From NCBI GenBank assembly GCA_963850305.1, contig CAWKKR010000006.1, positions 64,001 to 128,000 of the forward strand: 64,000 nucleotides of DNA, read 5' to 3'. Below are positions 20,679-39,627 of this stretch, piece by piece (position 1 is the first letter of the stretch; every line of letters starts with the position of its first letter). The notes beneath the pieces are model-generated. The model had not been told where the DNA came from, made no database searches, and saw nothing but the letters and a program-made list of their open reading frames with translations. The position numbers and the translations under genes were made by a program. The DNA comes from an uncultured delta proteobacterium (GTDB lineage Bacteria; Myxococcota_A; Polyangia; Polyangiales; Polyangiaceae).

Positions 20679-23116
20679 TCAGTAATGGCGTTCCAGCACG
20701 AACCATCCGAAGGCGCGGAGCATCGTCTTCGCGAGTGTGTCTTCGATGAGCGGCTCCAGGCGACGCCATCCGGCCTCGACCATGTCGCGCGCTTCCGTCG
20801 CACACGCCTCGACGGCGCCGCATTCCTCGAGCATGTCGATGACCCGGCGAACTTCTGCAGGATCCGTCGTTTTCGCGGCGAGAATTTCCCGCAATGTCCG
20901 CCGTTCCTCGAGGCCCAGACGTGACAGCGCCTTCGCCACTGGAAGTGTAATCTTCCCGTGAGAGACGTCCTCGCCCCGGCTCTTTAGATCGCCCTTGAAG
21001 CCTCGAAGGTTGAGCACGTCGTCCACGATCTGGAAGGCGAGACCCACTGCCTCGAAGAAGCCGCCCAAGGCCTCGACTTGTTGGTCGGTGCCGCCGCCGG
21101 CAATTGCGCCGATGCGGGCGAGGCACGCCGCCGGTGCCGCGGTCTTCAGACGATGCACCGTGAGCACCCGTCGCTCCAGGTCGAGCGCGTCTCCGGATTC
21201 CACGATCGTCGGCAAAATGTCTTCGAAGCCGTCCAGATCGATGGCTTGCCCGGCGTGACCCGTGCGGAGCGCCTCGAAATAGAGTTCGTACGTGCGCACG
21301 CGATCCCGGTCCGAGAGGCTCGCGGTGTTGATGAGGTGGATGCCGAGGAAGTACGCGGCGGTGCCGGAGTTGATCGCTTGGGGTTCTCCGTAGATCGTGT
21401 GCGCGGTCGGCCCGCCACGACGCACGACGGACTTGTCTTGCACGTCGTCCACGATGAGCGAGCCGACGTGCATCATTTCCGGCAGCGCGAGCCATCGCAC
21501 AAATCGACGTGAATCCCCTCCGACGATGTCGCAACACGTGAGGGCGGCGTAGGACCGCCAGCCTTTGCCGCCTCGATCGGTGATCTCGCGGATGGGCCTT
21601 ATCAGCGTGCGACCGAGCTGCTTGAGGTCCATCCCGTCCATGTAGTGGTCGCGGGTCGGTGTCCCGATGAGGTCGCGCGCTTGCTGATACGTCGGTTCGA
21701 GCGGAATGACCTCGCGGATGGATTTACGCACCACGCGGCCAACAGCCTGGAAGTAGCTGTCGAGATCGTCGAAGTGCGTGAAGCCGCTGCGCTCCACGAA
21801 CCCGGTGCCCTGGACGTCCTTGCCCTGCAGGCGACCCTCCACCTGTACGCGGCCCTCCCAGAAGGACGACTTGGACACGAGCGTGATGAACTCTTGATCC
21901 TCGAGCGTCGCTCTCACGTCGAGCTCGATGCCCGCCTGCGGGATCTCGCAGCGCCAGCGTACCGGGTAATCGAAGAACGTCTGGGTGCTCTGCCAGTGTT
22001 CGAGCGGTTCGAAGCTCAAGTCATGGTGCAGACTTCGGTTGCCCTGGGGATCGATCACGACAGCCCACGCGCCCGCTGACTCGTTCGTCTTCACTTTCAC
22101 GAGCGGATAAACGGTGACGTCAGTGCCGTCGTCGAGTTGCGCGGAGAGCCAGTTCCAGCCGATCGCGTCGTTCTCCTTCTTCGCGCGACGTGCCTCCTGC
22201 CGTTCGGCGAGGGCCAGCAGGTCCGTCGTCGTTTCGAGCACGTCATCCTCGTCGGAGTCCATCGCTCCGTCGGGCTTGTAGCCGAACTCGTGATCGTACC
22301 AACCTTGCCCCTGCGCGACGTTCAGCTTGGTCCCGCCGCTCGTGAGGGAGCCCGATACGCGACAGCGTGGGATGAAATAGTAAAACATTCGCTCGCTGTC
22401 GGAGCCGCGGACGACGCCGTCATCGCCGTGGCGCACGGGGCGCTTCTGCGGCTCGAACACCAGATCGCACCCTACGTTCGAGTCGGCGTCGATGAGATGT
22501 AGGCGATACGAACCGTCGTCCTGCTTCCTGAACGTAGCGCCGCCATAGTCGAGGTCGAGACGACGCTCGCCGACGAAGACGCGGCCCTTGATGAGTTTGT
22601 CCGGGCTGGGTACGTTGCCTCGGGCGAGCGTCTCGGCGAGGGCACGATTCAGTCGCGGATCTTCGAGCCGAAGCCGCGCCGAAGTCGCTTCAAGCCCTCC
22701 TCGGGCGCGCTTGGATCGACGCCCGAGACGTGGACGTACTTCTTTCGTTCGACGTCGAGGATGGCCCACGTGACCGAGTGCGCGTAGTCGAACGCGCCGG
22801 TGTCGTTGTTACGTCGCTTGGCTTGCCGGAAGAACGCGGCGAAGAGTGAGAGGTGGCGCCCCTCGGTCGTCACCACGTGGGTGTTCATGTACCACCACTC
22901 GAGCGTCGACGACGCGTGCGGCAGATCGTGAACGGCCAGATCGATCACGCCGGGGCCGGGCCAATCCACCGGATTCGTTCCCTCGACTTCAGTTGCGCGC
23001 CCGCGGCTGTGTCTGCCGCTGCGAGGCTCGCCGCCTTTTGTTTCCGTTGCAGTCTGCGGAGTGGTTCTCACGTCGTCAGTTACGGCAGAAACGAGGGCTA
23101 TTGGTCGTATCGTCAT
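20679..23116 (-). CDS. AttH/CrtC-like lipocalin-fold domain fused to a trans-polyprenyl diphosphate (GGPP-type) synthase; apparent frameshift near 22660
   Basis: N-half: EWWYMN, FYYFIPR, GQGWYDHEFG, GWNWLSAQLDDG, YPVRW, DQE, FWEG. C-half: GGKGWRS, SLIVDDVQD..RRG, GQAIDL, KT, FQIVDDVLN. One added G joins both ORFs (..GSKDPRLNRA..). Confidence 0.82.
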
Positions 23117-23465
23117 GGGCCGCGCCTCCAGCCGGAGGCATCTCCGTTACAAGGTTCGTGCCGTGTCGCGGTGCCATTTGCGGGACTCGAGCACGGCACG
23201 AAGATACACCACCGAGCCAGCGGAACCACGATCTGAGCCAATTTTATCGCGCATTCGAGGACTCGCCGCGGTAGGTCGAAATTTCCGAGATCACTGTCGC
23301 GTTATCTGGGCGCGAGTGTACCGGCGTTGCACAATGAAACGGCCAGAGGTGCGCAATGTTCGTTCAAGTGAACCGAGCCTCGCAGTTTTTCGATTTTAAT
23401 CGCAAAAGTCAGGGCATGTCGGTGAAATGGGCCATTATGGAGAGTCGTCACACATTGGAATACTC

Positions 23466-24248
23466 ATGAGTCGAACCAGCGCGAGGTTCTTGCTGTCATT
23501 GCTCTTCTGTCTGCTGCTCGTATCAGTCTCGCGAGCCGACGACGGTCTCACGGCGGATCAGATCGCGGCGCACATCGTTCAGGGGAACGGCTTCACATGG
23601 GAGGGCGCGGAGACGCGCCTCCGAATGACGCTCATCGATCGGAATGGTGGGACGAGCGAGCGCAGCATGACCGTGCTCGGTCGTCGAAAGGACGGGTTGC
23701 TGGAGAGCAAGGTTCGGTTCACGGCGCCTTCCGACGTTGCGGGGACGACGTTTCTGACTCTCGAAAAAGCCGGCGGCGGCAGCGAGCAGTATGTCTATTT
23801 GCCCGGGTTGCATCGCACGCGCCGCATAGTCGGGCGAGAGCGGGAAGGAAGCTTCATGGGCAGCGATTTCACCTACGGAGATCTCGAGCGAAAGTCCGAC
23901 AAGGGAGGGAAGCACGTCCGGCTGCCGGACGAGATGATCGGCAGCGATGCGACCTACGTCCTCGAAACGACGCCTGGGTCCGTCGAGCTCACGGGCTATT
24001 CGAAGGTACGAACCTGGATCCGGAAGAAGGACTTCGTTCCGATCCGGACGCGGTTCTTCGACACATCAGGTAAGCCGTCGAAGACGCTCTACGTCAAGCG
24101 GATCCGGGATTTCGAAGGCAAGCCGACGATCGTCGAGGCACGTATGCAGAGCGAGAGTGGTCACGCGACGGAGCTCGTGGTGGATTCGCTCGAACGAAAA
24201 GACGATCTACCCGATTCGGACTTCTCGCCTACCGGTCTCGACCGCTGA
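23466..24248 (+). CDS. Outer-membrane lipoprotein-sorting (LolA-like) protein
   Basis: Signal peptide; FTAPSDVAGTTFL, QYVYLPGLHRTRRI, SFMGSDFTYGDL motifs. Confidence 0.85.
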   Translation: MSRTSARFLLSLLFCLLLVSVSRADDGLTADQIAAHIVQGNGFTWEGAETRLRMTLIDRNGGTSERSMTVLGRRKDGLLESKVRFTAPSDVAGTTFLTLEKAGGGSEQYVYLPGLHRTRRIVGREREGSFMGSDFTYGDLERKSDKGGKHVRLPDEMIGSDATYVLETTPGSVELTGYSKVRTWIRKKDFVPIRTRFFDTSGKPSKTLYVKRIRDFEGKPTIVEARMQSESGHATELVVDSLERKDDLPDSDFSPTGLDR

Positions 24249-24250
24249 GA

Positions 24251-24805
24251 TCAAGTCCGCGGGGCAATCTTGGCGAGGGTGCGAAGTACGGCGGCCATCG
24301 GCTTCGAACCGAGGCGGAGAAAGAGTTCGATGAGACGCGACAGATCCTCGACGAACTTCGTGAAGCGATCGGCCCGGGCGCAAATCTCCGCCGCAGCCGC
24401 GGTTTGAGCCTTTACGGCCTCTAGCGTCGCCCGCGTGCGGCGCATCGCTTGCAGAACCGGCACGAACTCTCTGTGATGACGCTCCGCTACGATTCTCAAA
24501 AACCAGACCCAGGGGTCGTGGTTGGTGAGATATCGTCGGCCCTCGGCACTCTCCTGGGACTCGACGACGCCCCAATCGACGAGCTCGTCCACGTGCCGGC
24601 ACGCGTCGGCGACGGGGATTCCGAGCCTCTCCGCTACGCGAGATTCGTCGAGGGGCTCGAGAGCGATGTATATGAGAGCATGCGCGCGCCCGAGGTCTCT
24701 GGCCATCCCGAATGCTTGCGCGAGCCCTCCCCAGTTCTCCACGAAGGCATGCTCGCCCGCGGTTACCGGGTCGGCGCTCTGCGTCTCATCGACGTTTCGA
24801 GCCAT
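24251..24805 (-). CDS. GbsR/MarR-family transcriptional regulator
   Basis: FVENWGGLAQAFGMARDLGRAHALIY..EPL..VAERLG..ELVDWGVV winged-helix pattern. Confidence 0.75.
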   Translation of the reverse strand: MARNVDETQSADPVTAGEHAFVENWGGLAQAFGMARDLGRAHALIYIALEPLDESRVAERLGIPVADACRHVDELVDWGVVESQESAEGRRYLTNHDPWVWFLRIVAERHHREFVPVLQAMRRTRATLEAVKAQTAAAAEICARADRFTKFVEDLSRLIELFLRLGSKPMAAVLRTLAKIAPRT

Positions 24806-24836
24806 GCGCCCTTCTAACATCAAATCGCGGGGCAAG

Positions 24837-26414
24837 ATGCGCGAACGCCGGTGGGCCGTGGCTGTATTCTGGACCCTTTTGCTGTCAGCCCGGGCGGTGT
24901 TCGCGGATGACGTCGTGGTCGATCCGGAGCTCCAAGGGGTCAAAGCGAACGAGCCTGCCAAACCTTCGGACGTCGTGGTCACTGATCCCGAACTGGCGGG
25001 TTCCACGCCCGCGAAGAAGATCGACACGTCGGTCGCGCCGGCCGCCTCCGACACCATCTGGCGGGCGTCCATACACAGCCGATGGGGGGTCGACACACAC
25101 GGGTCGATGAGCACGGAGGACATCGTCGAAGGAACGACGGTCGCTTCGCTCGACGCCGTGGAGCGACGGTCGGATGCGCTGATGTTCTCGGTGGGAATGC
25201 GCGCGCGTCATTCGTACGCGCATGCGCGCGGAGGCGGGGATCGAAGCGAGCTCGTTTTCGAGCCGACGTCGGCGTTCGTCGATGTGACGCCCGCGGACGG
25301 TTACCACTTTCGAGCTGGTTACCAGAACATCGCGATGGGCCGTTTCGACGTGTTCAGCGCTACGAACTTTCTGGCGGTGTACGACCTCGAGAGCGGCCCC
25401 GTCACGATGCCGGAGGCATCCATCATTGCGCAGCCGGCGCTCCGATTCGACTTCGATCGCGTGCAGGGGTTTGCGCTGCAGGCGTACTATGTGCCATTTT
25501 TTCAGCCGGATCGCGTCGCGCTCTACGGTAGCGACTACGCGTTGCTCTCGCCGTCCGTGTTGAGCTACCTGACGCCGGCGACGTCAGGCGGCGCTGCGCC
25601 TCGGTCGTCTTCTGAATTCAATCGATCTCAGATCGCGAACGCGTCCACGGGGGTGCTCTCGGCACTCGGGCCTGCGCCGGATCTATCCCATCCCCAGGGT
25701 GCCCTGCGCGCGACACTTCACGGGTCGGCTGGCGAGCTTTCGGGCACCGTCGGGACGGCTCTCGAGAAACTGCCCGCGCTCGGCCCGGATCCGAACACCC
25801 TTGTCGACTATGGCCGGTACGAGGTCGCGACCCTCGACGGCGCTATTGGAGTGGGGCCGATTCAGTTCGGTGCGGAGGCGGCGTACATGGCAAACCGCAC
25901 CCTCGGCGCGATCCGGGTTTCGACCCCGCCCGTGACCAGTCCCGACCAACCCAGGACAGAAGCTGCCAGCGCCAAGACGAACGTCGTCCAGGGCGCTCTC
26001 CGCGCCGAACTCGTCGATGCGTCCGGTTGGGCCGCAGAGGTCGAGGGTTTCGTGCTCGAGACTCTCTCCGCGGCGCCGAATCTGCCGCCGACGCTCGGGA
26101 GCACGGCGACGCGCTACGAGTGGTTCACGCTTCAAGACGGGCGCTATTGGAGTGGAGTGGCGGGTGGCGTGCATTATGCTCCCGACGGGGCGCGGTTCCG
26201 TCTCGAACTCGGTGGCGTGTGGTTCACCGGGCCCACGTACGCGGTGTTGCCGCGCGTGGAATGGGAGGTGGTGCCGACGGTGTTCTTCGAACTCGGGGGG
26301 GCGTTCGTCGGTGGACCACGTCCTCAGACGCCGCTCGGTTCGTCCCTCGTTTCGTTGGGCGGACTCTTCACGGACGTCGATCAGGTGTACGCGGGTGTCC
26401 GATGGACGCCATGA
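24837..26414 (+). CDS. Probable outer-membrane beta-barrel protein (DUF1302-like)
   Basis: Signal peptide (..AVFA/DD), RAGYQNIAMGRFD, YYVPFFQPD, alternating beta-strands, aromatic C-terminus YAGVRWTP. Confidence 0.65.
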   Translation: MRERRWAVAVFWTLLLSARAVFADDVVVDPELQGVKANEPAKPSDVVVTDPELAGSTPAKKIDTSVAPAASDTIWRASIHSRWGVDTHGSMSTEDIVEGTTVASLDAVERRSDALMFSVGMRARHSYAHARGGGDRSELVFEPTSAFVDVTPADGYHFRAGYQNIAMGRFDVFSATNFLAVYDLESGPVTMPEASIIAQPALRFDFDRVQGFALQAYYVPFFQPDRVALYGSDYALLSPSVLSYLTPATSGGAAPRSSSEFNRSQIANASTGVLSALGPAPDLSHPQGALRATLHGSAGELSGTVGTALEKLPALGPDPNTLVDYGRYEVATLDGAIGVGPIQFGAEAAYMANRTLGAIRVSTPPVTSPDQPRTEAASAKTNVVQGALRAELVDASGWAAEVEGFVLETLSAAPNLPPTLGSTATRYEWFTLQDGRYWSGVAGGVHYAPDGARFRLELGGVWFTGPTYAVLPRVEWEVVPTVFFELGGAFVGGPRPQTPLGSSLVSLGGLFTDVDQVYAGVRWTP

Positions 26415-26423
26415 GTCGCGGTG

Positions 26424-28244
26424 CTATCGCGCGACCGGTTTGCCGAAGAATTTCGTGAGCAGGCTGCTGGGGCCGTACGCGACACGAACGAAATCCGCCT
26501 TGGGTTCCGTGTCGCTTTCGCCGAGATGGGGCGGCACGAACGGCGCATAGCCACTTCCGTGCCACTTTAGCCAAACGTACCTCGGATCCTCGAGCGGGCG
26601 ATGGAAGCGTGCGAGGATTTCGAGAGGTCGTCCGTCGGACGTGACTTTGGAGATGGTCACACGAAAGTCGTCGAGCTCGATTCGATCTCCGACGGCGAAC
26701 GGGCGTTTTCGTGTGTTGCGGAAGAGGCGTTCACTCGGGAGTACGAGGTATCCGCCGTCTTGACGGACGCGCAGGGTCGTTTCATCGACGCGAGTGACGT
26801 GGACGACGCCCGCGCTCGTGGCCAGCCAATGCTGAGCCCGGGCCAGCGGCGCGCCGAGTGCAGCCCGCGTCACGGGGATATACGCGGCGAAGGGATCCGC
26901 AGCGGGGTTCAGGTAGATGACGATGCGGTGCTCGATGTCCGGGGTCGACGGAATGGTCTCGTCGGCGCGGGCGATCGCGGCGCGCACGGCGGCGATTCCC
27001 GTCGAGCGAAAGGGCAAGAGGAGTGGCCGGAGCACCAGATGGACGACGACCACCGCGAAGGCCGCGACCGGTGCAACGCGACCGCGCAGACCGTCGAACG
27101 ACGGCCCATCCACGAACCGTACGAAGAACTGAGCCGTCAGTGCGCTAGCGCCCACGGCGATCCACGGCAGCAGCCGATCTGCGGGGAAGCTGCCGCACGC
27201 AGGAAGAGTTCCGAGGGTCGCGCCGAGGAGCCAGAATCGAGCCGTCCGCTCGGTTCGAAAGAGGGGCCAGAACAAGATTCCGACGCCGCCTATCACCGCG
27301 ACCGCAACCGCGGCGACGATATATTGAAGTCCAGGTAGCAACACGGAGTAAGCGTTCCAGCCTTCGGACCAGGGGCCGCCGAGTTGCGCGAACCAGAGCG
27401 CCGCGAAGCGCTCGGGAAGCGCACGAAGGAAGTCGCCCGGGTCCCGCAGAGGATCGAAGTAGAGGCCCGATCCCGCGATGCCGAAGCCAAGTCCCCGATA
27501 AGTGGCCCCCCAGATGAGTACGGTGCCGGCAAATGGCCAGAGCCGTGCCAGCCGTCGGGTGAGAGGTCCCTCCTCGAGAAAGACTTCACTTGCGAAGAGG
27601 TAGGCCGTGATGGCCAAGGCGCCCTCGCTCGCGAGCAGCGCCGCGGCGAAGGCCAGGGGGGCGAACCACGCCGCGGCGCGGCGTCCCGCACGTCCTTCGC
27701 GGTACCAGACCAGCGCCCAGATCGAGAGCCCACAAGCGATGATCTCGTGCCGGTTCGCAATCCACGTCACCGGCGTTCCACGTGCGTCGTCGAGCGCGTA
27801 GATGGCGAGCGCGAGCACGGCGAGCCACCCTCGTCCGTGGATCGCCAGGAAGAGGCGGCGGACAGCGAAGAGCGCAACGACCGCCCAGGCCAGCGTGTGA
27901 AGGTGCATCCACACGGCGTTTCCTGGCAAAATTAGATGATCGAACCAGTGCGTCGCTGAAGCCAGCGGCCGAAAAAAAACGAAGCGCACGTTCGGGTCGA
28001 TCCACCAGGGAAGGATGCCCTCGTTGACCAGCACGTGGTTCGTTGCAGGACTCGCGAAACGAAATAAATCGAGCGGCGAGCGGCTCAGACCCGGCAGCGG
28101 ATTCGAGGAAAGCTCGAGTTCATGAAAGTAATCGTCGGCTCCGAGACCCGAGAAGAGCGATGGTGAGGCCAGCAACGTACCGAGAAAGATGAGCCAGAGG
28201 TCCGCCCGAGGGCGGGACAGCACGCGACGGATCGATTCGTACAT
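26424..28244 (-). CDS. Polytopic membrane protein, GT-C/TMTC-like (paralog A)
   Basis: GLGADDY, PWW.DP..FFRPL..THW.D, MHLH, YALDDARG.PVTWIANR, SGLYFDP, FPADRLL; about 10 TM segments plus soluble C-terminal domain. Confidence 0.65.
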   Translation of the reverse strand: MYESIRRVLSRPRADLWLIFLGTLLASPSLFSGLGADDYFHELELSSNPLPGLSRSPLDLFRFASPATNHVLVNEGILPWWIDPNVRFVFFRPLASATHWFDHLILPGNAVWMHLHTLAWAVVALFAVRRLFLAIHGRGWLAVLALAIYALDDARGTPVTWIANRHEIIACGLSIWALVWYREGRAGRRAAAWFAPLAFAAALLASEGALAITAYLFASEVFLEEGPLTRRLARLWPFAGTVLIWGATYRGLGFGIAGSGLYFDPLRDPGDFLRALPERFAALWFAQLGGPWSEGWNAYSVLLPGLQYIVAAVAVAVIGGVGILFWPLFRTERTARFWLLGATLGTLPACGSFPADRLLPWIAVGASALTAQFFVRFVDGPSFDGLRGRVAPVAAFAVVVVHLVLRPLLLPFRSTGIAAVRAAIARADETIPSTPDIEHRIVIYLNPAADPFAAYIPVTRAALGAPLARAQHWLATSAGVVHVTRVDETTLRVRQDGGYLVLPSERLFRNTRKRPFAVGDRIELDDFRVTISKVTSDGRPLEILARFHRPLEDPRYVWLKWHGSGYAPFVPPHLGESDTEPKADFVRVAYGPSSLLTKFFGKPVAR

Positions 28245-28287: not shown

Positions 28288-30129
28288 ATGACGTCGATGC
28301 CCAGCGGGGGCTTCATCATGCGACTCCTGAACGACCTTGCTCGCCACCTCGGGGCCCTCGCATCGCGGCTTGGAACGCGCTTCGCTCGGTGCGTCGTGAT
28401 CGGGGTGGCTACGCTTTTTGCGGCAACGTCCGTGGGTCGCCATCGCGTTCTGGACGACTACGTCCTCGCCCTCATCGCGCGCGGGAAGGGTGCCCCTGTC
28501 GGACTCCCGCGCGGCGCGTTCGATCTGTTCACGTTCACGACGGGTGATCCCGCTGGCAATCGTCGGCTCATGGACGTCGGGCTGATGCTGCCGTGGTGGA
28601 CCGATCCGCACCTCCGGATTTCGTTCTTTCGTCCGCTCACGTCCTTCACGCATTGGCTCGACGAAAGACTCTGGCCCTCGAGCGCGGCGCTGATGCACCT
28701 GCATTCGTTGTTCTGGTTCGGCGCCCTGCTCGTGGCAGCCTCTGCAGTGTACGTCCGGCTGGAAGCATCGCCAGCGCTCGCGGGCCTGGCGTTATTCCTT
28801 TACGCATTCGATGACACGCACGGCCCGGCCGTGGCATGGCTCGCCAATCGCAACGCCTTGATCGCGGCGACCTTTGCTTGCTGGTGCCTCGTCGCGCACG
28901 ACCACTGGCGGCGCGGCCGGCGTCCGCTGTGGGCGGGTCCGGCCGTTCTCGCCTTCACGGTTGGACTTCTGGCGGGCGAGCTCGCGATCGGTGCGCTCGC
29001 GTATCTCGTCGCGTACGCGGCACTCGTGGATCGCGACCGTCCCATCCGTCGAGCCTTGAGCATCGTGCCGTACCTAGCCACGATCGTGACGTGGCGCATT
29101 CTGTGGTCTCGAGGTGGGTTCGGTGCGAGAGGTTCGGGCGCTTACCTCGATCCACTCACCGACCCACTCGGCTTTTTGCTGGTCCTGCCCGGAAAGCTTC
29201 TGGTGTTGCTCCAGGGGCAGTTCTCGGGGCCGCCCTCGGACCTCGCGTTTCTGTCGCCGCCCTCGGTCCAGCCAGCTCTGATCGGGCTGAGCGTCGTCAC
29301 GGCCCTCGTGCTTCTCGTCGTGTTCGTCCCGCTGGTTCGACGCGACGTGACGAGCCGGTTCTGGGCGCTTGGTATGGCGCTCTCATTGGTCCCGCTCGGC
29401 GCAACGTTTCCGAGCGATCGTCTGCTCGTGTTCGTTGGACTCGGCGCGATGGCACTTCTGGCTCGGCTCTTCACGGTGTGGATCGCTCGAGCGGGCAGCC
29501 GCGGGCGACTCGATTTCGCGACGGTCGTCGTCGCGTTGCTCGCGCTCCGGCACGTCGTCTTGGCGCCGCTTTTGTTGCCCGTGCGGGCCGCGCAGATGGA
29601 GCTGTTCGGCGTCGCCCACGATCGCGGTGCGGAGGGGATCCCGTCTGGAGCGTCGATCAGGGAGAAGACCGTGGTCGTCCTCGCCGCCCCGACGCTGCTA
29701 TTCGCGAACTACATCCAGGCCGAACGCGCGCTCACCGGTGTCCCGCGCCCCGCGCACCTCTACGTACTCGCGAGCGCGAGCTCGCAGATCGACGTGGAGC
29801 GGACGGGCCCAGAGACTTTGACGCTCCGTCCCGAGCACGGCTTTCTGTACACGCCGCTCGAGCGGCACTATCGCGGCACGGCGCCGTTTCACGTCGGGGA
29901 CCGCGTGGCTCTCTCGACGATGAGCGCGACCATCGGCGCTCTCGGCTCGGATCGCCGTCCGAGCGCCGTCGTCTTCTCGTTTCCCGAGCCTGCCGAAACC
30001 TATGTCTTCGTGAAGTGGCGGGGCGACCGCTTCGTGCCTTTCGCGTTGCCGCCGGTGGGTGGGCACGCGACGCTGCCCGAGGAGGACTTCGGCAAGATTC
30101 TGGTCGAGACTGCCATGGACGCGATTTGA
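28288..30129 (+). CDS. Polytopic membrane protein, GT-C/TMTC-like (paralog B)
   Basis: LDDY, PWWTDP..FFRPL..THWLD, YAFDDTHG..WLANR, SGAYLDP, FPSDRLL; start 28288 or 28318. Confidence 0.65.
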   Translation: MTSMPSGGFIMRLLNDLARHLGALASRLGTRFARCVVIGVATLFAATSVGRHRVLDDYVLALIARGKGAPVGLPRGAFDLFTFTTGDPAGNRRLMDVGLMLPWWTDPHLRISFFRPLTSFTHWLDERLWPSSAALMHLHSLFWFGALLVAASAVYVRLEASPALAGLALFLYAFDDTHGPAVAWLANRNALIAATFACWCLVAHDHWRRGRRPLWAGPAVLAFTVGLLAGELAIGALAYLVAYAALVDRDRPIRRALSIVPYLATIVTWRILWSRGGFGARGSGAYLDPLTDPLGFLLVLPGKLLVLLQGQFSGPPSDLAFLSPPSVQPALIGLSVVTALVLLVVFVPLVRRDVTSRFWALGMALSLVPLGATFPSDRLLVFVGLGAMALLARLFTVWIARAGSRGRLDFATVVVALLALRHVVLAPLLLPVRAAQMELFGVAHDRGAEGIPSGASIREKTVVVLAAPTLLFANYIQAERALTGVPRPAHLYVLASASSQIDVERTGPETLTLRPEHGFLYTPLERHYRGTAPFHVGDRVALSTMSATIGALGSDRRPSAVVFSFPEPAETYVFVKWRGDRFVPFALPPVGGHATLPEEDFGKILVETAMDAI

Positions 30130-30159: not shown

Positions 30160-31041
30160 ATGAGCGCGGAAATGAGCTCGCGGATCTGCGTTGTTTGCCA
30201 GGGTGTGACGGACGGCGACAAAGTCGAAGAAACCAACATTCGCTCCAACGTCCGCGCCTTTCGGGATGAGACGTTCGCGTTCTGGCGATGTGCTCACTGC
30301 AAAAGCATCCACGCCCGCGACGACGTCGACCTCGCGCACTACTACGCGAAGTATCCGTTTCATGACCTGCCTGCGGACTGGCGGATCAAGACCATGTACG
30401 CGGGGCAGCTCGCGCGGCTGGAGCGGGCAGGGGTCACGCGGTCGAGCCGCGTGCTCGATTACGGCTGCGGCGGCGGACAGTTCGTCCGGTTTTTGAAGTC
30501 GCGCGGCTTCGACGACGTGCGCGGCTTCGACGAGTACAGCGAGGAATTCGGTGACCGGAGCGTCCTCGACGATCGCTATGACTGCATCGTCTCGCAGGAT
30601 GTGGTGGAGCACGTGCCGTCCCCCGCGGGCCTGTTCGCGGAATTCGAGCGGCTGACGAAGGTCGGATCGATCATCGCAATGGGGACGCCCAACGCGGCGG
30701 CCATCGATCTCGCCCGTCCGGACGCCTTCGTTCACACGATCCATGCGCCGTACCATCGGCACATTCTTTCGAAGACCGCCCTCGTCGCTGCCGGCGAACG
30801 GCAGGGTTGGTCGCTCGCGCGATTCTATCCGACGATGTATTCCAACACGCGCGTCCCGTTTCTGAATGAGGCCTTTTACCTCTATTACACGCGCATAGCG
30901 GACGGGACGCTCGACGCGCTCATGGAACCGGTACGCGTGGGGGCCCTCTTGCTCCGCGCGCCCCTCACACTTTTCTACGGGCTGTTCGGGTCATTCCTGT
31001 CGCGCAATACGGACGTGATGGCCGTGTTCCGTAGAACCTAG
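30160..31041 (+). CDS. Class I SAM-dependent methyltransferase with N-terminal Cys4 ribbon (paralog 1)
   Basis: CVVC..WRCAHC, VLDYGCGGG motif I, DVVEHV, GTPN. Confidence 0.85.
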   Translation: MSAEMSSRICVVCQGVTDGDKVEETNIRSNVRAFRDETFAFWRCAHCKSIHARDDVDLAHYYAKYPFHDLPADWRIKTMYAGQLARLERAGVTRSSRVLDYGCGGGQFVRFLKSRGFDDVRGFDEYSEEFGDRSVLDDRYDCIVSQDVVEHVPSPAGLFAEFERLTKVGSIIAMGTPNAAAIDLARPDAFVHTIHAPYHRHILSKTALVAAGERQGWSLARFYPTMYSNTRVPFLNEAFYLYYTRIADGTLDALMEPVRVGALLLRAPLTLFYGLFGSFLSRNTDVMAVFRRT

Positions 31042-31070: not shown

Positions 31071-32873
31071 ATGCTCGACAAGGTTCGTTCCGCCCTCGAA
31101 CGCTTCGCTGCATGGAAATATGCGGCCACGGTCGTGGTCGTTTTTGGGGGGGCGCTCGTTGCGCCATCGATCGGCTCTGGCCTCGCCGCGGACGACTGGT
31201 TTCACCGGCTGGTGCTCACGGGCTCGAACGCCGTCGGCGGCGTTCATCATCGACCGCTCGATCTCTTCGTATTCTCCGACGGAAATCCGGCGGTCGGGCG
31301 AGCGCAGCAGGAGTCGGGGCTCATCGGCTGGTGGGCGGATCCCGGCGCGGCGCTCGCCTATTTTCGCCCACTCTCTGCCGCGACGCACTGGCTGGACTAT
31401 CGGCTCTGGCCGAACGCCCCGTGGGCGATGCACGTGCACAGCCTGGTCTGGTTCGTGCTCGGCCTCGTCGCCCTGTCGCGCGTTTATCGACGATTCGCGG
31501 AACCGGCGTGGGTCGCGATCCTCGCCCTGCTTCTCTACGCTGTCGACGATGCGCATGGCTTCGTCGTTTCGTGGATCGCCAACCGGAATGCGCTCATCAC
31601 GCTGGCGCTCGGGTTGCCCGTGCTGGTGCTCCACGATCGTGGCCGCCGGCAGGGAGCAGCGTCGTCGCGATGGTTCGCGACGGCGCTCTTTTTCGTCGCT
31701 CTGTTCGCGGGCGAGTCTGCGGTCGCGGTCGGCGGGTATCTCGTCGCGTACGCAGCATTCCTGGAACCCGGACCGTGGAAACGTCGCGCGGCGTCTCTCC
31801 TGCCTTACATGGTCGCGTTCGTCGTCTGGCGTGTAATATACGCGGGGTTGGGATACGGCACCCATGGGTCCGGGCTTGCCATCGATCCCATACACGAACC
31901 TGTCGCGTTCATCCACGCGCTCGCCGTTCGGCTGCCGATACTGCTCGTCGCTCAGTTTGCGCTTCCACCGTCGGATCTCTGGGAAGTCTTCCAGACGATC
32001 GCGCCGTGGCTGCCAACTGTCGTCTACGTCGGGGCGCTCGTTCTCTTGGCGAGCATTGCGTGGACACTCGCGCCGCTGATGCGCCGCGAGCCTGCGGTTC
32101 GCTTCTGGGCACTCGGGACCTTGCTGGCGGCTCTGCCGGCGTGCTCGCAGGTGCCCTCCGATCGGCTCCTTCTGTACACGGGCGTGGGAGCGCAGGCACT
32201 AGTTGCGCGGTTCCTTGCGGCCGTGCTCCGCCGAGAACCGTGGACGAAGTCGAGCACTCTTGCCAGCGTGGGTACGGGCGCTGTCGCTGCCCTGTTCGTG
32301 GTCTTGCATCTCGTGATCGCGCCCCTCTGGTTGCCGCTGCGTTCCCGCGGGCCCGCGGATGTGGATTCGATGCTGTCGCTCGCGGACCGAACTTTGCCGC
32401 GCGATCCGGCAGTGGCGCGAAAGACCGTCGTCCTGGTGAATCCGCCGGCGGACGCGTTTGCGGGTTACGTCATGATGAAGCGCGCCGCGACCGGTGTCGT
32501 GCGTCCGGGTAGGTTGCGCTGGCTTGCGACGGGGGCGAGCGACATGGTCGTCGAGCGGCTTGACACGAGATCGTTGCGCGTCGAGCTGAAGGATGGATTT
32601 CTCTCCCTCGCATCGGAAAGGATGCAGCGAAGTTCAGGAAACCCGATGCTCGTCGGTTACACGGTGTCGTTGTCCGGTATGACCGTCCGCGTGACCAAGG
32701 TCACCGCGGACCTCAGACCGAAGGAGATCATCGCCACGTTCGATGCGCCCCTCGAAGATCCTGGTCTCGTCTTCTTGAAATGGACGGCGAAGGGCTACGC
32801 TCCGTTTGCGATCCCGGCGATTGGCGCCCACGTCGAATTGCCGGCGCTCGATTTCACGACGCTCCGGATGTGA
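31071..32873 (+). CDS. Polytopic membrane protein, GT-C/TMTC-like (paralog C)
   Basis: GLAADDW, GWWADP..YFRPL..THWLD, YAVDDAHG..WIANR, GSGLAIDP, PSDRLL. Confidence 0.65.
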   Translation: MLDKVRSALERFAAWKYAATVVVVFGGALVAPSIGSGLAADDWFHRLVLTGSNAVGGVHHRPLDLFVFSDGNPAVGRAQQESGLIGWWADPGAALAYFRPLSAATHWLDYRLWPNAPWAMHVHSLVWFVLGLVALSRVYRRFAEPAWVAILALLLYAVDDAHGFVVSWIANRNALITLALGLPVLVLHDRGRRQGAASSRWFATALFFVALFAGESAVAVGGYLVAYAAFLEPGPWKRRAASLLPYMVAFVVWRVIYAGLGYGTHGSGLAIDPIHEPVAFIHALAVRLPILLVAQFALPPSDLWEVFQTIAPWLPTVVYVGALVLLASIAWTLAPLMRREPAVRFWALGTLLAALPACSQVPSDRLLLYTGVGAQALVARFLAAVLRREPWTKSSTLASVGTGAVAALFVVLHLVIAPLWLPLRSRGPADVDSMLSLADRTLPRDPAVARKTVVLVNPPADAFAGYVMMKRAATGVVRPGRLRWLATGASDMVVERLDTRSLRVELKDGFLSLASERMQRSSGNPMLVGYTVSLSGMTVRVTKVTADLRPKEIIATFDAPLEDPGLVFLKWTAKGYAPFAIPAIGAHVELPALDFTTLRM

Positions 32874-32883
32874 CCGCGTCGTG

Positions 32884-35446
32884 TCACTCGTACAGGACGG
32901 CGCTGGTGACGTCGGTGCGCGCGGCCCGGTACGCGGGGATCCCTCCTGCGAGCGCGGACGTTGCGAGGACGAGGCCTGAAATCCGGCCGGCGCTCGCCCA
33001 GGGGAAGACGTAATAGAGGTGCCACCCGGTGTCCGAGAGCAGCACGGTCTTCAAGAAAACGAGACATTGCACCACCCCGAGACCCACGCCGGCCACCATT
33101 CCGCAAAACCCGAGGAAACCTGCCTCGACCACTATCGACAACGCTACTTGTCGTGACGTGGCCCCGATCGCCCGTAGCATGCCGATCTCCCGCGCCCTGT
33201 CGAGGACGGCTGCAATCATCGTGCCCGCGATGCCCATCAGCGCGATGAAGAGCGTCACGATCTCGACGGATCGCGAGTAGGAAAACGTTTCGGTGAGCGA
33301 ATCGGAAAGGCTACTCTTGATGCTCTCGGTTTTCGTGACGAAGACCGCGTCACCTCCTCCGAGGGTGGCGCGAATTCCGTCGGCGACGGTGTCTACGTTG
33401 GCCCCCGGAGCGAGGTAGACGTTCACCGCGTCCACCGCCTGGTCAGCCCAGTATTTCAAAAATTCGCTTCGATCGATGAACGCCGCCCCTCGCTCGGACG
33501 TGTAATCCACGATCACGGCGCGAATGTCGAAGGTGACGCGCCCCTGCGGTGTCGCCAGCGACACCGTGTCGCCGGCGTGGAGCCCAAGGCGTCGCGCGGC
33601 GCTCTCGCCGAGCAAGAGCCGCGGCGCGGAGCTGAGATCGCCTTTGTGCAATGGGGCGCCATCCACGACGGGCCAGCGCTTACCGCGCAGGCCGGCCTCC
33701 CCGATGAACTCGTTGGTATCGGTTGCAACGAGCTTGATCGACTTGCCCATGACATCCTGATCGACGAGCCGGAACCGCTGGACCGCCGCCACGCCAGGTA
33801 CCCGGGCGATCTCGTCCGGGGCTTCGGGGCTCAGGAGGACGTGACGCCGATCGAGAATGGGTGAACCGGCCGTGACGCTCAGGTCGGAGACGCTCATTTG
33901 ATCGAACCAGTCGCCGATGGACCGCTCGAACGACGAGATCCAGCCGCCGACCGAGACGCTCATGCTTACCGCGACCATCAGCGCCAGCACGTTCACGGTG
34001 CTCCGTCCCAGGGTGCGTTCCACGTAGTCGAGGCCAAGCCTGCCCGGAAGCCCGAGTACGCGCTCGACCGTACCAACGATGGCCCATCTGACGAACACGA
34101 CGATCGCGGGAGTCGCGAATGCGGCCCCCACGACGGCCGACGTGAGCGCAATGGCCCCACCCATGATGGACGTTCCGAGAACCGGCAACCAGGACCCGGC
34201 GAGAAACACGACGCCGACTCCGAGAAGACGCAGGTAAGGTACCTGCGATCGTTCGAATCGAGGACGCGCCGCGCAGCACGATGGCTGGGTCGAGAGAGGC
34301 TCCACGACGCGCCGGCCAGATGGCGGCGACGACCGCCGTGCAGAGTCCCGCGACGGCTCCTTTCGCGGCGAGGGCCAGCGTCAGGTGCGGTTCGACGGGC
34401 GCAACGGACACGAAGAGACGGTTCAGGGCGTCCAGCATCCGCGCCGTGGAAAAGTGAGCGAGAGTTCGGGCAAGGACGAGCCCCAACCCCACGCCCGGGA
34501 TCGCCAGCAGGCACGCCTCCAGACAGAACAAGAGTACCGTGCGATTTCGCGTGATCCCGAGTGCGCGGAGGACGCCTATTTCGCGCCGCCGTTGAACGAT
34601 GGCGATGCCGACGGCGTTGTAAACGAGAAACGCCCCCACGAGCAGCGAGATGTACCCGGACAGCTTCAGTGCCGAGCGAAGGGGCAAGGTGAGTGCGCGA
34701 AGGCGCGCCCCGAGCCGGTCCGGCTTCTCGACGGTGAATCCACCGCCGATCTTCTGCTGGATGCGATCCGCGAGTGCCCCGAGATCGGTACCGGGATCGG
34801 CCGCGACGTCGATGCGGTCCACGAACGTGCCCCGCGCGAACGACTCCTCCGCGGCGTCTATGAACATGACGGCAACCTGTCCTCCGAACGACGCTGCAGG
34901 CCCCGTGTCTTCGAGAACGCCGCGCACGTGAAACTCCTTGGGTCCGTTGGCCGTGAGCAAGCGAAGCCGGCTGCCCTTGGAGAGACCGTGCCGAGAGGCA
35001 AACCGCGCCGACACGAGCAACGCGGTCGGATCGTTGACGAAGGCGAGAGGGTCTTCGATCGCTCGGGTGTCGCCCTCCTTGACGTTGAACGGCAAGAAGT
35101 GGAGGTCCCCGAGGAAGTCGACCCCGAGAACCAGGAGGGACTCGCCGAAGTCGGGGGCCTGGGTGGTCACCTCGAGGCTGGCGGCCGCGTGGGCGACGCC
35201 GGGCACGTCCGCAATCGTGGCGACCAGATCCGCCGGAACCCCGACGCCCGCGCTCTGAACCGTCAGATCGGCGCGACCGGAGACTCGTGCGACGATCTCC
35301 GCGAACGCGGCCATCATGCTTTGCGCCGTCGCTTCGGTGGCCACGAACAGGGCGACGCCGAGACCGATACCGATGACGACGAGTACGGAGCGCAGGGGCG
35401 CCCGCGTCCAGTGACGAAGGCTGATCTCACGAAGTAGGGCGAACAT
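32884..35446 (-). CDS. FtsX/MacB-type double-domain ABC permease (AttF/AttG-like); apparent frameshift near 34256
   Basis: RSVLVVIGIGLGVAL, RRREIGVLRALG, RAREIGMLRAIGAT, PAYRAAR; deleting one T joins both ORFs (..ASSIERSQVP..). Confidence 0.85.
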
Positions 35447-35936
35447 CGCGGCGGTGGATGAGGGCCGAGAGAACGACGAACGGCGCCACCAGAGCGCCTT
35501 CGATCGCGGAGAGACTGGTCTTCAATTCGATGAACGAAAAGCGGGGCAGGGCCGTCGCGCCGGAGAGAGCCAGCGCGGCCAGCACCGGGCCCGCGAAGAA
35601 CGGCATCGAGACCAGGCCGAGGACCATCGCACGGCCAAGCAGACCGCGCCGCTGGAGCGCCAGGATGCCGAGGACATCGGTCGCGACGTCAGGTGGAATG
35701 ATGCGACCGCGTGCCACGTCGAGCTTGGCTTGGAGGGCGGCGCCGAGGCAAGTGCCGAACGCGACGCCGAAGGCCGTCGCCAGGACGTCCGGAAAAACGC
35801 CGGGCGCCTTCCAGACGGGAAACGCAACGAGCCCGCGCGTGGCGAGCCATCCGAGCCCGCCATTTATCAGGCCGTTGACGACCCCCGAACCGATGGCGCT
35901 GTCGACGAAGAGATAACGACGGTGCTCAGGGGACAT
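35427..35936 (-). CDS. Hypothetical membrane protein (about 4 TM)
   Basis: Hydrophobic segments; overlaps both neighbouring genes in the operon. Confidence 0.6.
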   Translation of the reverse strand: MSPEHRRYLFVDSAIGSGVVNGLINGGLGWLATRGLVAFPVWKAPGVFPDVLATAFGVAFGTCLGAALQAKLDVARGRIIPPDVATDVLGILALQRRGLLGRAMVLGLVSMPFFAGPVLAALALSGATALPRFSFIELKTSLSAIEGALVAPFVVLSALIHRRDVRPTS

Positions 35937-36837
35937 CGCGGTGCGACCTTCCCGCCGCATCCGAAGTGCGGAACATGTACTGGATATCCGTGTGTCGATC
36001 GAAGAAATAGCCGAACAGCGCGAGAAATAGAGTCTGCGGGGTGAACAGCCGCAGCGGCGTACGTATGGGCTCCGTGATGAGATCGAAGCAGTCGTCGTTG
36101 CAGCGGACGTAGTGAAGGACGAATCGCGGATTCATCGTGGGCACGAGCGTGTTGTTGAACATCGTCGAATAAAATCGCTCCGTCTTCCACCCGAGCGCTT
36201 CCGCGGCGGTCTGGAGCGCGACCGCCGAGAAAATATGGCGGTGATACGGCTGGTGCAGCGTGTGGATGAAGTCGTTCGCGCGGCTGAGATCGATCGCCGC
36301 GGCGTCCGGCGTCCCGAGCGATACCAGCCCGCCTGGTTCGACCATTCGATCGAACGTACGGAGCAGCTCCAGAGGCTCCGCGACGTGCTCGATGACATCT
36401 TGCGAGATGATGCAGTCGTACCGCTGTTCGAGCACGCTCGGATCCCGGAATGCTGCAGCGTACTCGTCGTAGCCCGTCGCGTTTTCGTACCCCTTCGAGC
36501 GGAGATAAAGGACCAGGCTGCCCGAGCCCGAGCCGTAGTCCAGTATGCGGTGTTCCGGCAACAGCCCGGCCTTCTTCAGACGCCGAAGCATGCTGCCGTA
36601 GACTACATCGAGCTTCCAATCGAGATTCGCGGCGAAGATCGGATAGCACGCGTAGTAGTGCGGAAGATCGACGTCGTCGGTCGCGTGGATCGAACTGCAC
36701 GCCGGACAGCGCCAGAGCCCGAACGGCTCTTCACGAAAGCGCCGGACGTTGGAGCACACTTCCGCGCGCTCGCAATCCGACGTCGACGCGACGCGCGCGC
36801 CGCAGATGTTGCACACGAACTTCGCGGGGTCCGTCAC
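35926..36837 (-). CDS. Class I SAM-dependent methyltransferase (paralog 2)
   Basis: CNIC..WRCPAC, ILDYGSGSG, YDCIISQDVIEHV; closely similar to 30160..31041. Confidence 0.85.
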   Translation of the reverse strand: MTDPAKFVCNICGARVASTSDCERAEVCSNVRRFREEPFGLWRCPACSSIHATDDVDLPHYYACYPIFAANLDWKLDVVYGSMLRRLKKAGLLPEHRILDYGSGSGSLVLYLRSKGYENATGYDEYAAAFRDPSVLEQRYDCIISQDVIEHVAEPLELLRTFDRMVEPGGLVSLGTPDAAAIDLSRANDFIHTLHQPYHRHIFSAVALQTAAEALGWKTERFYSTMFNNTLVPTMNPRFVLHYVRCNDDCFDLITEPIRTPLRLFTPQTLFLALFGYFFDRHTDIQYMFRTSDAAGRSHRDVP

Positions 36838-37514
36838 GAGGACATTGCCTCATCGCGAACGAGGGCTCCGTCGGCCATCGTCAACGTGCGGTCGCCCTTC
36901 CTCGCAACGGCGGGATCATGCGTGACGAGAACCACCGTCCGGTGCGCATCGACGGCCCCGCGGAGAAGTTCGAGGATCGACGCGCCGGTCGTCGAGTCCA
37001 GGTTTCCGGTGGGCTCGTCCGCCAGGAGCAGCGGAGGATCCATCATGAGTGCACGCGCGATCGCCACGCGCTGCATCTCTCCGCCGGACAGCTCGTCCGG
37101 GCGGTGCGTTCCCCGCGCCGTGAGCCCCACGCGCTCCAGCAATTCGCTCGCTCTGGCCCTGGTCGCCGTGCCCGGGCGCCCGGCAAGGCGCGCGGGGAGT
37201 GCGATGTTTTCGAGCGCCGTAAGCGTCGGAAGCAAGTTGAAGAACTGAAACACGAACCCGATGCGATCCCGTCGCGTGTACGTGCGCTCGTCATCGGACA
37301 TCTTGCCGAGGTCGCGCCCCTCGAGCAACACGGCGCCCGAGGTCGGGCGATCGAGCGCGCCCATCAGATTGAGGAGCGTGCTCTTCCCCGAGCCGCTCGC
37401 GCCGACGATGGTGACCAGGGTACCCGGCAGGACGTCGACCGAAACGTCGCGGACGGCGGCCACGGCCTTCCCGCCCGAGCCATATGCGCGGGACACGCTC
37501 TTCAAGCTGATCAT
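36834..37514 (-). CDS. LolD/AttE-like ABC transporter ATP-binding protein
   Basis: GASGSGKST, GFVFQFFNLL, LSGGEMQRVAIARAL, ADEPTGNLD, VTHD. Confidence 0.92.
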   Translation of the reverse strand: MISLKSVSRAYGSGGKAVAAVRDVSVDVLPGTLVTIVGASGSGKSTLLNLMGALDRPTSGAVLLEGRDLGKMSDDERTYTRRDRIGFVFQFFNLLPTLTALENIALPARLAGRPGTATRARASELLERVGLTARGTHRPDELSGGEMQRVAIARALMMDPPLLLADEPTGNLDSTTGASILELLRGAVDAHRTVVLVTHDPAVARKGDRTLTMADGALVRDEAMSS

Positions 37515-37793
37515 GAGTTTGGGGCGACGTCCGGAACAGGCATGCCGGTGGTGGGCGGGTTCCGCCAAGACTTTCGCATCGGCAGGGCTGGTTGAGGCGA
37601 AAAACGTTTCGTAAAAGCGGACGATGGCACGTCGCCTGTCACGCTGCGAGGCCCTTCGTTAGGCGGCGCTTGGCGCGCTTTCCACCGTTCCTCGCCGGTC
37701 GCTCGAACACCAGCAGATCGAGCGGCGTAATGGACGCGGGCGGGACACTGCCGCCGCTCGTCCACGACCGGCGTCGCGGCTTTCAGATCACCG

Positions 37794-39038: not shown

Positions 39039-39049
39039 GAGCGCGCGCT

Positions 39050-39586
39050 CTACTAACAAAGGGGGGCCTTGCCCCCCGCGGCTTGCTTCGCAACCGCTCC
39101 CCCCGCCGCCTTCGGCGTGCTCGCTGCGCTCGTTTCGTAATGGGGGCCTTGCCCCCGCGGCTCGCTTCGCGACCGCTCCCCCGCCGCCTTCGGCGTGCTC
39201 GCTGCGCTCGTTTCGTAATGGGGGCCTTGCCCCCGCGGCTCGCTTCGCGACCGCTCCCCCGCCGCCTTCGGCGTGCTCGCTGCGCTCGTTTCGTAATGGG
39301 GGCCTTGCCCCCGCGGCTCGCTTCGCGACCGCTCCCCCGCCGCCTTCGGCGTGCTCGCTGCGCTCGTTTCGTAATGGGGGCCTTGCCCCCGCGGCTCGCT
39401 TCGCGACCGCTCCCCCGCCGCCTTCGGCGTGCTCGCTGCGCTCGTTTCGTAATGGGGGCCTTGCCCCCGCGGCTCGCTTCGCGACCGCTCCCCCGCCGCC
39501 TTCGGCGTGCTCGCTGCGCTCGCGTAGTTCCGCACCTCTTTGATCCCTCGGGGACGACGCTGCTCGTCGATGCGGAACTATTAACA
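39050..39586. repeat. 138-bp structured element with 6 tandem copies of a 78-bp internal unit
   Basis: Units start at about 39061, 39142, 39220, 39298, 39376 and 39454; bounded by CTACTAACA/CTATTAACA 528 bp apart (138+5x78). Confidence 0.92.
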
Positions 39587-39627
39587 CGGGCCGCGTCGGC
39601 GCGCGGCCCCCGGTGAACGAGGTTACT

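Follow-up and report, generated by a model that had tools for sequence, protein, structure and literature searches.

The minus strand of the window (the whole 64,000-nucleotide stretch analysed) carries, at 20679..23116, a gene that joins an AttH/CrtC hydratase-fold domain to a trans-prenyl diphosphate synthase and, read through a 1-nt break, encodes 812 aa. Both halves are known enzyme types, and their fusion is a real and conserved architecture that is apparently uncharacterised; judged by sequence, bacteria, an archaeon and protists all have proteins of this two-part kind. On balance, the enzyme seems to synthesize GGPP and then to turn it, by hydration, into a tertiary alcohol destined for glycosylation and export, a reading that draws on sequence motifs, predicted structures and analogy with characterised hydratases. 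A bifunctional isoprenoid enzyme had been proposed in an earlier note on this DNA, and the predicted folds of both halves and the occurrence of the fusion in relatives support the proposal. A cytoplasmic single two-domain enzyme is the best explanation; neither a signal peptide nor a membrane helix was found in the fusion protein, despite the JGI name of its homologs, 'geranylgeranyl pyrophosphate synthase/predicted secreted hydrolase'.

Two overlapping minus-strand ORFs make up the gene, one of 155 aa (22649-23116) and one of 696 aa (20679-22769). The 5' part (22661..23116, minus strand) encodes a disordered tail, the start of the first barrel with HDLPH and EWWY (22900-22889), and the first half of a helical insert; the remainder of the AttH double barrel lies at 21783..22660 and the trans-IDS domain at 20682..21764, both on the same strand. 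Pfam matches CrtC profile positions 2-61 in the first ORF and CrtC 92-167, Lipocalin_9 and polyprenyl_synt in the second, and the frame of high GC3 shifts near 22700. The break is a 1-nt frameshift at 22659..22663 (minus strand), where the window reads AAG AT and relatives read AAG GAT or AAA GAT/GAC. The missing base is one G of a GG pair, at 22661, the window having TCG AAG AT CCG and two same-genus relatives TCG AAG GAT CCG; the continuous homolog sequence across the break is GLGSKDPRLNRAL. In same-genus genomes the gene is stop-free through the break in all six cases, five of them full length and one ending at a contig edge. Frameshifts also affect other genes of the assembly. When 156 ORFs of relatives were aligned to this genome, in that direction, 8 of 37 orthologs changed frame, and with two copies of the fusion gene and one opposite-strand shadow excluded the count is 5 of 34 others, one of them less clean. 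The ABC permease gene of the fusion's own cluster is split too, and the genome's second trans-IDS gene, to judge by its sequence a long-chain type, ends early. Because the relatives read through and other genes of this assembly are frameshifted too, the break at 22661 is most likely an assembly or sequencing error, leaving a slim chance that the gene is a true pseudogene in this genome. A programmed frameshift was rejected because the site has no slippery run, and two separate genes were rejected because homologs are continuous through the junction. The single frame of about 810 aa, reached in the earlier note by a 1-nt repair, agrees with the 812-aa read-through and with the uninterrupted relatives, and the motifs listed there (EWWY, WYDHEF, GWNW, FWEG, FARM and SARM) all lie where expected.

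The AlphaFold2 model of an intact homolog, P0002 (85% identical), has a pLDDT of 90 and a pTM of 0.87 and consists of a 38-residue disordered tail, a double barrel at 45-445 and a helical synthase at 446-809. Its synthase part superposes on the archaeal GGPPS 1wy0 (Z 37.2, rmsd 2.3, 326 aligned), and its barrel on AttH 2ich (Z 36.0) and on kievitone hydratase 7a0q (Z 32.9, rmsd 2.8 A, 298 aligned). The duplicated lipocalin-like barrels (PF07143 plus PF17186) place the N-terminal part in the AttH-like/CrtC superfamily, and the Pfam domains and structure matches agree on the fold assigned earlier. The barrel of the fused family has a conserved helical insert of about 40 aa (about 128-175) that is missing from stand-alone Niastella relatives. 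Several synthase superpositions draw in model residues 143-151, suggesting that the insert packs on the synthase in the predicted structure.

The C-terminal half has the FARM with its RR, the KT, GQ and SARM motifs and the helical IDS fold of a trans-isoprenyl diphosphate synthase. The minus-strand positions are 21470-21435 for the FARM (HVGSLIVDDVQD), 21356-21348 for a YF cap, 21257-21246 for HAGQ, 21149-21141 for KT and 21023-21009 for the SARM, DDVLN. The clade signal is split, the FARM-to-GQ segment pointing to type III enzymes and the whole domain to archaeal ones. For the segment, the top matches are human GGPPS and then the PT domains of fungal chimeric terpene synthases, and type III GGPPS reaches E 5e-15 versus 9e-9 for the archaeal enzymes. 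For the whole domain, the best matches by sequence (IdsA_Meth, E 2e-40) and by structure (1wy0, as above) are archaeal, the top 50 structure matches include neither a yeast nor a human enzyme, and no NCBIfam cut-off is reached by the domain. In the alignment to human GGPPS, AAYFLG falls on YVYFLG and HAGQ on HQGQ, identifying Y586-F587 and H618 as the cap. These three residues are retained in 78, 80 and 83, respectively, of 88 diverse homologs, the set that spans both domains among 141 new or top-ranked representatives analysed, of 150 listed, from a 50%-identity search. In yeast, Y107, F108 and H139 halt elongation at C20, according to the available portions of PMC9729869 and PMC10762340. Since the type III Tyr-Phe/His cap is kept, a C20 product is fairly likely, and a modest chance goes to C25; sesterterpene synthase PT domains (C25) with the same motifs are listed among the segment matches. 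The description of this domain as type III-like in the earlier note fits its chain-length residues, with a cap as in human GGPPS, and does not fit the scaffold, which best matches archaeal GGPPS. Two of the arguments made there for a eukaryotic-type enzyme prove weak. The DDxxN motif is not diagnostic because DDxxD replaces it in 30 of the 88 diverse homologs, and the small residues before the FARM (G549 and S550, at -5/-4 and without insertion) are not diagnostic of type III because long-chain synthases share them in alignments.

Beyond the break, the barrel contains the minus-strand motifs FYYF (22385-22374), WYDHEF with the presumed catalytic Asp (22301-22284), GWNW (22160-22149), DQEF (21899-21888) and FWEG (21863-21852). 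In alignments made via homolog P0121, WYDHEF lines up with WYDRQW of 7a0q and WLDREW of 2ich, and WNW pairs with WTW/WDW of kievitone hydratase/AttH. The acidic aromatic-x-Asp motif and the Trp pair of AttH-like hydratases are present, and the Asp presumably matches D268 of CrtC. None of 105 close homologs varies at D271; an acid (D or E) stands at this position in 84 of the 88 diverse homologs, which have W71 in 77, W318 in 69, W320 in 69 and E406 in 87 cases. Some long forms, P0251 (WYNHQF) and P0254 among them, have lost the acid but retain GT domains. The positions of CrtC His239/Trp241/Tyr266, mapped by spacing only, read F241/Y243/W269, and Phe/Tyr/Trp stand there, again by spacing, in 104-105 of 105 homologs, which would bring the site closer to kievitone hydratase than to CrtC. 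According to the available parts of PMC4717167 and PMC12402844, D268 of CrtC donates the proton to the double bond, and the resulting cation is stabilised by W110, W283 and W285; the second of these sources gives C12-C20 terpenes as CrtC substrates (geranylgeraniol 4%, geranyllinalool 25%). A tertiary alcohol is the product of kievitone hydratase (PMC5805349, available part) and of the archaeal AttH enzyme Hgs (bioRxiv 2025.10.20.683597, available part). In so much of these four sources as is available, all characterised AttH relatives compared hydrate an isoprenoid C=C to a tertiary alcohol, and a charged diphosphate substrate is without precedent among them.

It is unlikely that the barrel protonates GGPP and that the chain or an alcohol, instead of water, then traps the cation, which would make the barrel a non-canonical class II terpene cyclase or an ether-former, comparable to the fungal fusions of prenyltransferase and cyclase. 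Tocopherol cyclase has the same general fold as the barrel, the CrtC His-Trp-Tyr set differs in the fusion barrel (by spacing), and in the FARM region the fungal chimeric PT domains already mentioned come next to human GGPPS among the matches, all of which favour such chemistry. The available part of PMC4717167 also compares the chemistry of CrtC to that of squalene-hopene cyclase. Against a cyclase, all four characterised relatives compared are hydratases in the available text, kievitone hydratase shares the W-Y-D motif, and the recurring neighbours of the fusion include no cluster of P450s or other tailoring oxidases.

The protein search gave 1356 matches among 7995 candidates scored. The three Pfam domains occur together in 118 of the 119 non-self matches listed, and the N-terminal, central and FARM motifs stand on one chain in 104 of the 119, so that the intact homologs sought as a check on the fused architecture are at hand; these counts of homologs, and those of loci below, include kin and are not independent. 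Clustered at 50% identity, the proteins that have both domains form 88 clusters or more. The fusion is carried by 12 of 41 related genomes and by 11 of 120 genomes sampled across the phylum (~9%). The bacterial source labels are Myxococcota, Bacteroidota, a cyanobacterium, Chryseobacterium and Legionella quateirensis, and Streptomyces cinnamoneus and plasmids of Tolypothrix and Streptomyces canus are also among the labels; the archaeal label is the haloarchaeon Halocatena halophila, and the eukaryotic ones are the diatom Synedropsis, Willaertia magna and Trypanosoma rangeli. The T. rangeli homolog (RNF03316.1, labelled 'putative polyprenyl synthase') is intact, with 33% identity over 761 columns and its motifs kept. 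In a FastTree tree, from which one row was left out, the window protein falls in a well-supported clade with Polyangiaceae, Polyangiales and Sandaracinaceae records. A search for shorter forms returned mostly fragments and a stand-alone Niastella group of ~350 aa at 34% identity. The longer forms are 13 proteins that have a sulfotransferase (10 of 13) and/or a GT1 domain (11 of 13) ahead of the same core.

These longer forms bear on an unlikely alternative, in which making GGPP (or C25) is all that the synthase does and the barrel serves, without catalysis, as a lipid-binding or hand-off module, a role first suggested for the AttH protein NE1406. The fused GT1 and sulfotransferase domains require a hydroxyl acceptor, and the presumed catalytic acid and flanking Trp persist to ~32% identity, Trypanosoma included; both points argue for a catalytic barrel. 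The existence of related, barrel-free synthases in Streptomyces argues the other way. So does the association of NE1406-type proteins with LolD-like ABC transporters, together with the role in lipid transport proposed for these proteins in the available part of PMC2954199, the window cluster having such an ABC system. As for plain GGPP supply, it is favoured by a Bacteroidota copy that lies inside an apparent mevalonate operon, where HMG-CoA reductase alone is Pfam-confirmed, and by the intact homolog in Trypanosoma rangeli, for which GGPP is required for protein prenylation. Loci were compared in a set of 92, made up of 80 named ones, the window and 11 taken from relatives with flanks of 1.5 kb, and containing two duplicate or near-duplicate pairs; HMG-CoA synthase or reductase adjoins the fusion in 8 of them, which counts for the favoured reading of synthesis and hydration. 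Plain supply is opposed by two other trans-IDS genes in this genome, one within the mevalonate operon, which make the fusion synthase an extra.

No match to PF00494 (phytoene/squalene synthase) was found in this genome, which is 94.8% complete, nor was a close CrtI ortholog, the one match being at 25%. The squalene synthase and epoxidase-cyclase of the relatives' sterol genes are without a match here as well, and a squalene-cyclase search gave a weak off-target match only. PF00494 is absent in 8 of the 23 carriers examined, namely this genome and 7 of 22 others (4 of 12 related and 4 of 11 phylum-level carriers, all eight at least 93% complete). CrtI has no match in the 92 fusion loci, and PF00494-like genes lie near the fusion in only 2 of the 92, 6-8 kb away in one case. 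That the gene is a CrtE-CrtC fusion for carotenoid synthesis is very improbable indeed on these results, even though Pfam calls the barrel CrtC, CrtE and CrtC share one pathway, and some PF00494 gene is present in 15 of the 23 carriers; with PF00494 lacking in the eight carriers named, the fusion is taken not to be a carotenoid enzyme. A carotenoid or sterol role in this genome was rejected as the pathway genes are absent, and an archaeal-type ether lipid pathway was rejected as GGGP synthase (PcrB family) is above the cut-off in 0 of 41 genomes. The product, given as unknown in the earlier note, is consequently less open, with carotenoids and sterols unlikely in this genome and the glycosyltransferase partners pointing to a glycosylated alcohol.

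The commonest neighbour of the fusion is an unannotated membrane protein of ~600 aa with a GT-C fold, found in 23 of the 92 loci, in Polyangiaceae, Sandaracinaceae, Kofleriaceae and Nannocystaceae. The model of the window copy at 26424-28244 has a pLDDT of 92; GT-C or GT-C-like folds fill its 28 top Foldseek ranks and every one of the 50 rows of a follow-up structure comparison, with Z 17.9-16.4 to AglB, STT3, ArnT, ALG12 and Pmt. The family has no Pfam or NCBIfam match, and its D37-D38, an acidic motif after TM1, is invariant. Among relatives, it occurs in 12 of 12 carriers versus 11 of 29 non-carriers; at phylum level, counted at E<=1e-100 over the best 10 candidates per genome, it occurs in 5 of 11 carriers (adjacent in three) versus 16 of 109 non-carriers, implying that the link between GT-C and fusion is real and not obligatory. 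Glycosyltransferases unrelated in fold to GT-C recur too: soluble GT1 or GT28-like genes lie near the fusion in 5 of 92 loci, two of which have an FkbM methyltransferase directly downstream, and 65 of 92 loci, many of them short, have no glycosyltransferase nearby. In Tolypothrix PCC 7601 the gene (HG267_RS38970) encodes a four-domain protein (sulfotransferase, GT1, AttH and synthase), lies among remnants of IS elements and is flanked by an ABC exporter membrane-fusion gene and by devC plus an ATPase, with cysC 11 kb off; DevBCA is a glycolipid exporter. No phosphatase cluster is among the recurring neighbours. A neighbour of ~205 aa occurs in 20 of 92 loci; only two of the 20 members match DUF2378, and weakly, and a PDB search gave no match. 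A UbiA-family partner was rejected. It is present in 10 of 12 carriers versus 2 of 29 non-carriers among relatives, yet in 0 of 11 versus 3 of 109 at phylum level, so that UbiA tracks the lineage and its GT-C genes rather than the fusion.

GT-C enzymes use polyprenyl-phosphate sugars, and the product could accordingly be a short prenyl phosphate resembling dolichol, a lipid carrier dedicated to the GT-C family as sugar donor and not as acceptor. The GT-C fold of the partners, the 1-20 family matches per carrier genome and one fusion cluster that adds UbiA-family and geranylgeranyl-reductase-family genes are consistent with such a carrier. It is nevertheless quite improbable, as the GT-C family also occurs in the 16 of 109 non-carriers, the genome has an ordinary cis-prenyltransferase, and the fused or adjacent nucleotide-sugar GT1 and the sulfotransferase suggest an acceptor or end product. 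Among possible products, the linear prenyl glycosides known from sponges were dropped, no link having been found.

In the window, a cluster of genes that would suit glycosylation and export lies beside the fusion, at higher coordinates. A divergent LolA-like lipid/lipoprotein carrier (23427..24248, plus strand) adjoins the fusion in 14 of 92 loci, all within the window's own clade. Next come a MarR-type regulator (24251..25123, minus), whose true start is likely near 24800, and an unannotated exported protein (24522..26414, plus), which from its sequence may be an outer-membrane barrel and of which 7 of the 92 loci have a homolog next to the fusion. Three GT-C-fold paralogs lie at 26424..28244 (minus; the ~600-aa protein with the invariant DD after TM1), 28288..30129 (plus) and 31071..32873 (plus). 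Between the second and third is a SAM methyltransferase (30160..31041, plus), homologs of which lie close to the fusion in 7 of the 92 loci. The cluster also contains a double MacB/FtsX ABC permease (32884..35446, minus), which is likewise split, here into two overlapping ORFs, a second SAM methyltransferase (35926..36837, minus) and an ABC transporter ATPase (36834..37568, minus).

In the favoured mechanism of synthesis followed by hydration, the synthase domain would convert FPP and IPP to GGPP, a C20 chain if the cap acts as expected. The AttH barrel would then protonate a trisubstituted isoprenoid double bond and add water to give a tertiary alcohol; the bond is most plausibly the omega-terminal one, as in the analogous reactions of CrtC and kievitone hydratase. 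The new hydroxyl could serve the partner glycosyltransferases as sugar acceptor. In this lineage, the GT-C paralogs may add sugars periplasmically after ABC export, with LolA-like transfer; in other lineages, soluble GT1/GT28 enzymes, sometimes with a sulfotransferase, would take this role, and some may add methyl groups. Several findings weigh against this mechanism: the lost acid in some long forms, the apparent replacement of the CrtC His-Trp-Tyr set, the many loci with no glycosyltransferase nearby, the GT-C family in fewer than half of the phylum-level carriers, the failure of UbiA as a partner at that level, the missing phosphatase cluster among recurring neighbours, and a diphosphate substrate without precedent among the AttH enzymes compared. 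A bolder and decidedly tentative extension is a hitherto unrecognised isoprenoid glycolipid assembly line shared across domains of life, in which the GGPPS channels its product into a barrel that acts on the diphosphate itself, either hydrating it or cyclising it as the first class II terpene cyclase of lipocalin fold, some members forming four-enzyme proteins (sulfotransferase-GT1-AttH-synthase) and the myxobacteria pairing theirs with GT-C. If this were true, it would mean a new class of envelope lipid for myxobacteria that have no sterols or carotenoids, and an overlooked enzyme in trypanosomes. From the fusion itself one would predict diterpenoid lipids of a family not yet described, hydroxylated, glycosylated and in some cases sulfated, a prediction open to direct test in a culturable cyanobacterium; the fusion also offers a first clue to the function of the unannotated myxobacterial GT-C family.

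No study of the fusion was found in full-text searches that covered the main text of openly available papers and used no trypanosome terms. A 'polyprenyl synthase' of T. cruzi was reportedly once studied, and prior work on a eukaryotic member is possible. In the available text of a 2025 survey of bacterial diterpene synthases (PMC12009305), 'lipocalin' and 'CrtC' occur nowhere. Among known systems, kievitone hydratase of Nectria haematococca (7a0q) shares the double-barrel AttH fold and the W-Y-D and W-x-W motifs with the fusion barrel at 19% identity. The likeness drawn is to the cofactor-free hydration of an isoprenoid C=C by this enzyme and by the AttH-like hydroxy-GDGT synthase Hgs, the latter compared by description and not by alignment; both, however, are stand-alone proteins that act on flavonoids or tetraethers and have no fused synthase. 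The NE1406 AttH (2ich) is the closest barrel structure and has a similar ABC-transporter neighbourhood, but is a stand-alone protein of only putative function. CrtC of Rubrivivax gelatinosus (PF07143) is matched above the Pfam cut-off with the Asp and Trp pair conserved by spacing, while its His239/Trp241/Tyr266 appear, also by spacing, to be replaced in the fusion barrel; it belongs to a carotenoid pathway, unlike this genome, and is not fused to CrtE. The type III GGPPS of yeast (Bts1) and human (GGPS1) have in common with the fusion synthase the DDxxD FARM without insertion, the small -5/-4 residues and the Tyr-Phe/His cap, and differ from it in the whole-domain matches, which are archaeal for the fusion synthase. 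The fungal chimeras PvCPS and fusicoccadiene synthase likewise join a C-terminal GGPP-type synthase to a domain of carbocation chemistry; their partner is a helical class I/II cyclase, whereas here it is a beta double barrel and the link is short and predicted to be rigid.

Two Cys-rich proteins (window 18613-19650 and 19704-20663) are encoded on the same strand as the fusion and directly downstream of it, with a 16-bp gap. Both have Gly/Thr-rich linkers and lipoprotein-like N-termini. Matches to EB/Dickkopf are weak, and three same-genus loci have a neighbour similar to them. A protein of ~205 aa with a weak DUF2378 match, possibly a ligand-binding sensor, is found near the fusion in 20 of the 92 loci compared (L037:12523-13146 and 19 others). 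In one relative, the fusion and a GT28-like gene are followed by a PEP-synthase-like phosphotransferase, whose PPDK_N and PEP-utilizer domains lie in two ORFs (L106:12957-15825).

A Tolypothrix plasmid carries a four-domain sulfotransferase-GT1-AttH-synthase gene (L126:9742-14271), located within exporter genes broken up by IS remnants and with cysC nearby. Family members P0381, P0413, P0254, P0378 and P0431 comprise eukaryote-labelled proteins (Trypanosoma rangeli, Willaertia, Synedropsis) and PX-domain forms, the latter with both active sites decayed. Related synthases in which the N-domain is unrecognised or absent (L128:9419-12924, L129 and L130) adjoin flavin monooxygenases in Nitrosomonas stercoris and Streptomyces plasmids.

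The double MacB/FtsX permease occupies two ORFs overlapping by ~625 nt (window 32884-35446), a split that is probably another indel error. The second trans-IDS gene of the genome (L002:1453-2367), which looks like one of the long-chain type, is cut short, probably by an assembly indel. The MFS transporter ORF (37794-39587) opens with a ~29-aa unit repeated several times in tandem (39053-39535), which suggests that the true start is preceded by tandemly repeated DNA.

A UbiA-family subfamily marked by NNDYID ... QVMRDAD (G000:C1:35196-36086 in the window's genome, also at L134 and L022) is confined, among the genomes searched, to the window's taxonomic order. Its gene is adjoined by a GT-C paralog in seven of 12 loci, and one cluster has the order fusion, HMG-CoA synthase, UbiA, geranylgeranyl-reductase-like and GT-C. 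The window itself encodes three unannotated GT-C-fold paralogs of ~600 aa (26424-28244, 28288-30129 and 31071-32873), and most related carriers of the fusion have 5-20 matches to this family per genome. Elsewhere in the window's genome, a single run (G000:C1:245590-254873) combines a GT-C paralog, a long HMG-CoA synthase and three further membrane proteins of ~640 aa, one with a weak PMT_2 match. Neither Pfam nor NCBIfam has a model for the GT-C-fold family, and its motifs appear reminiscent of the TMTC O-mannosyltransferases.
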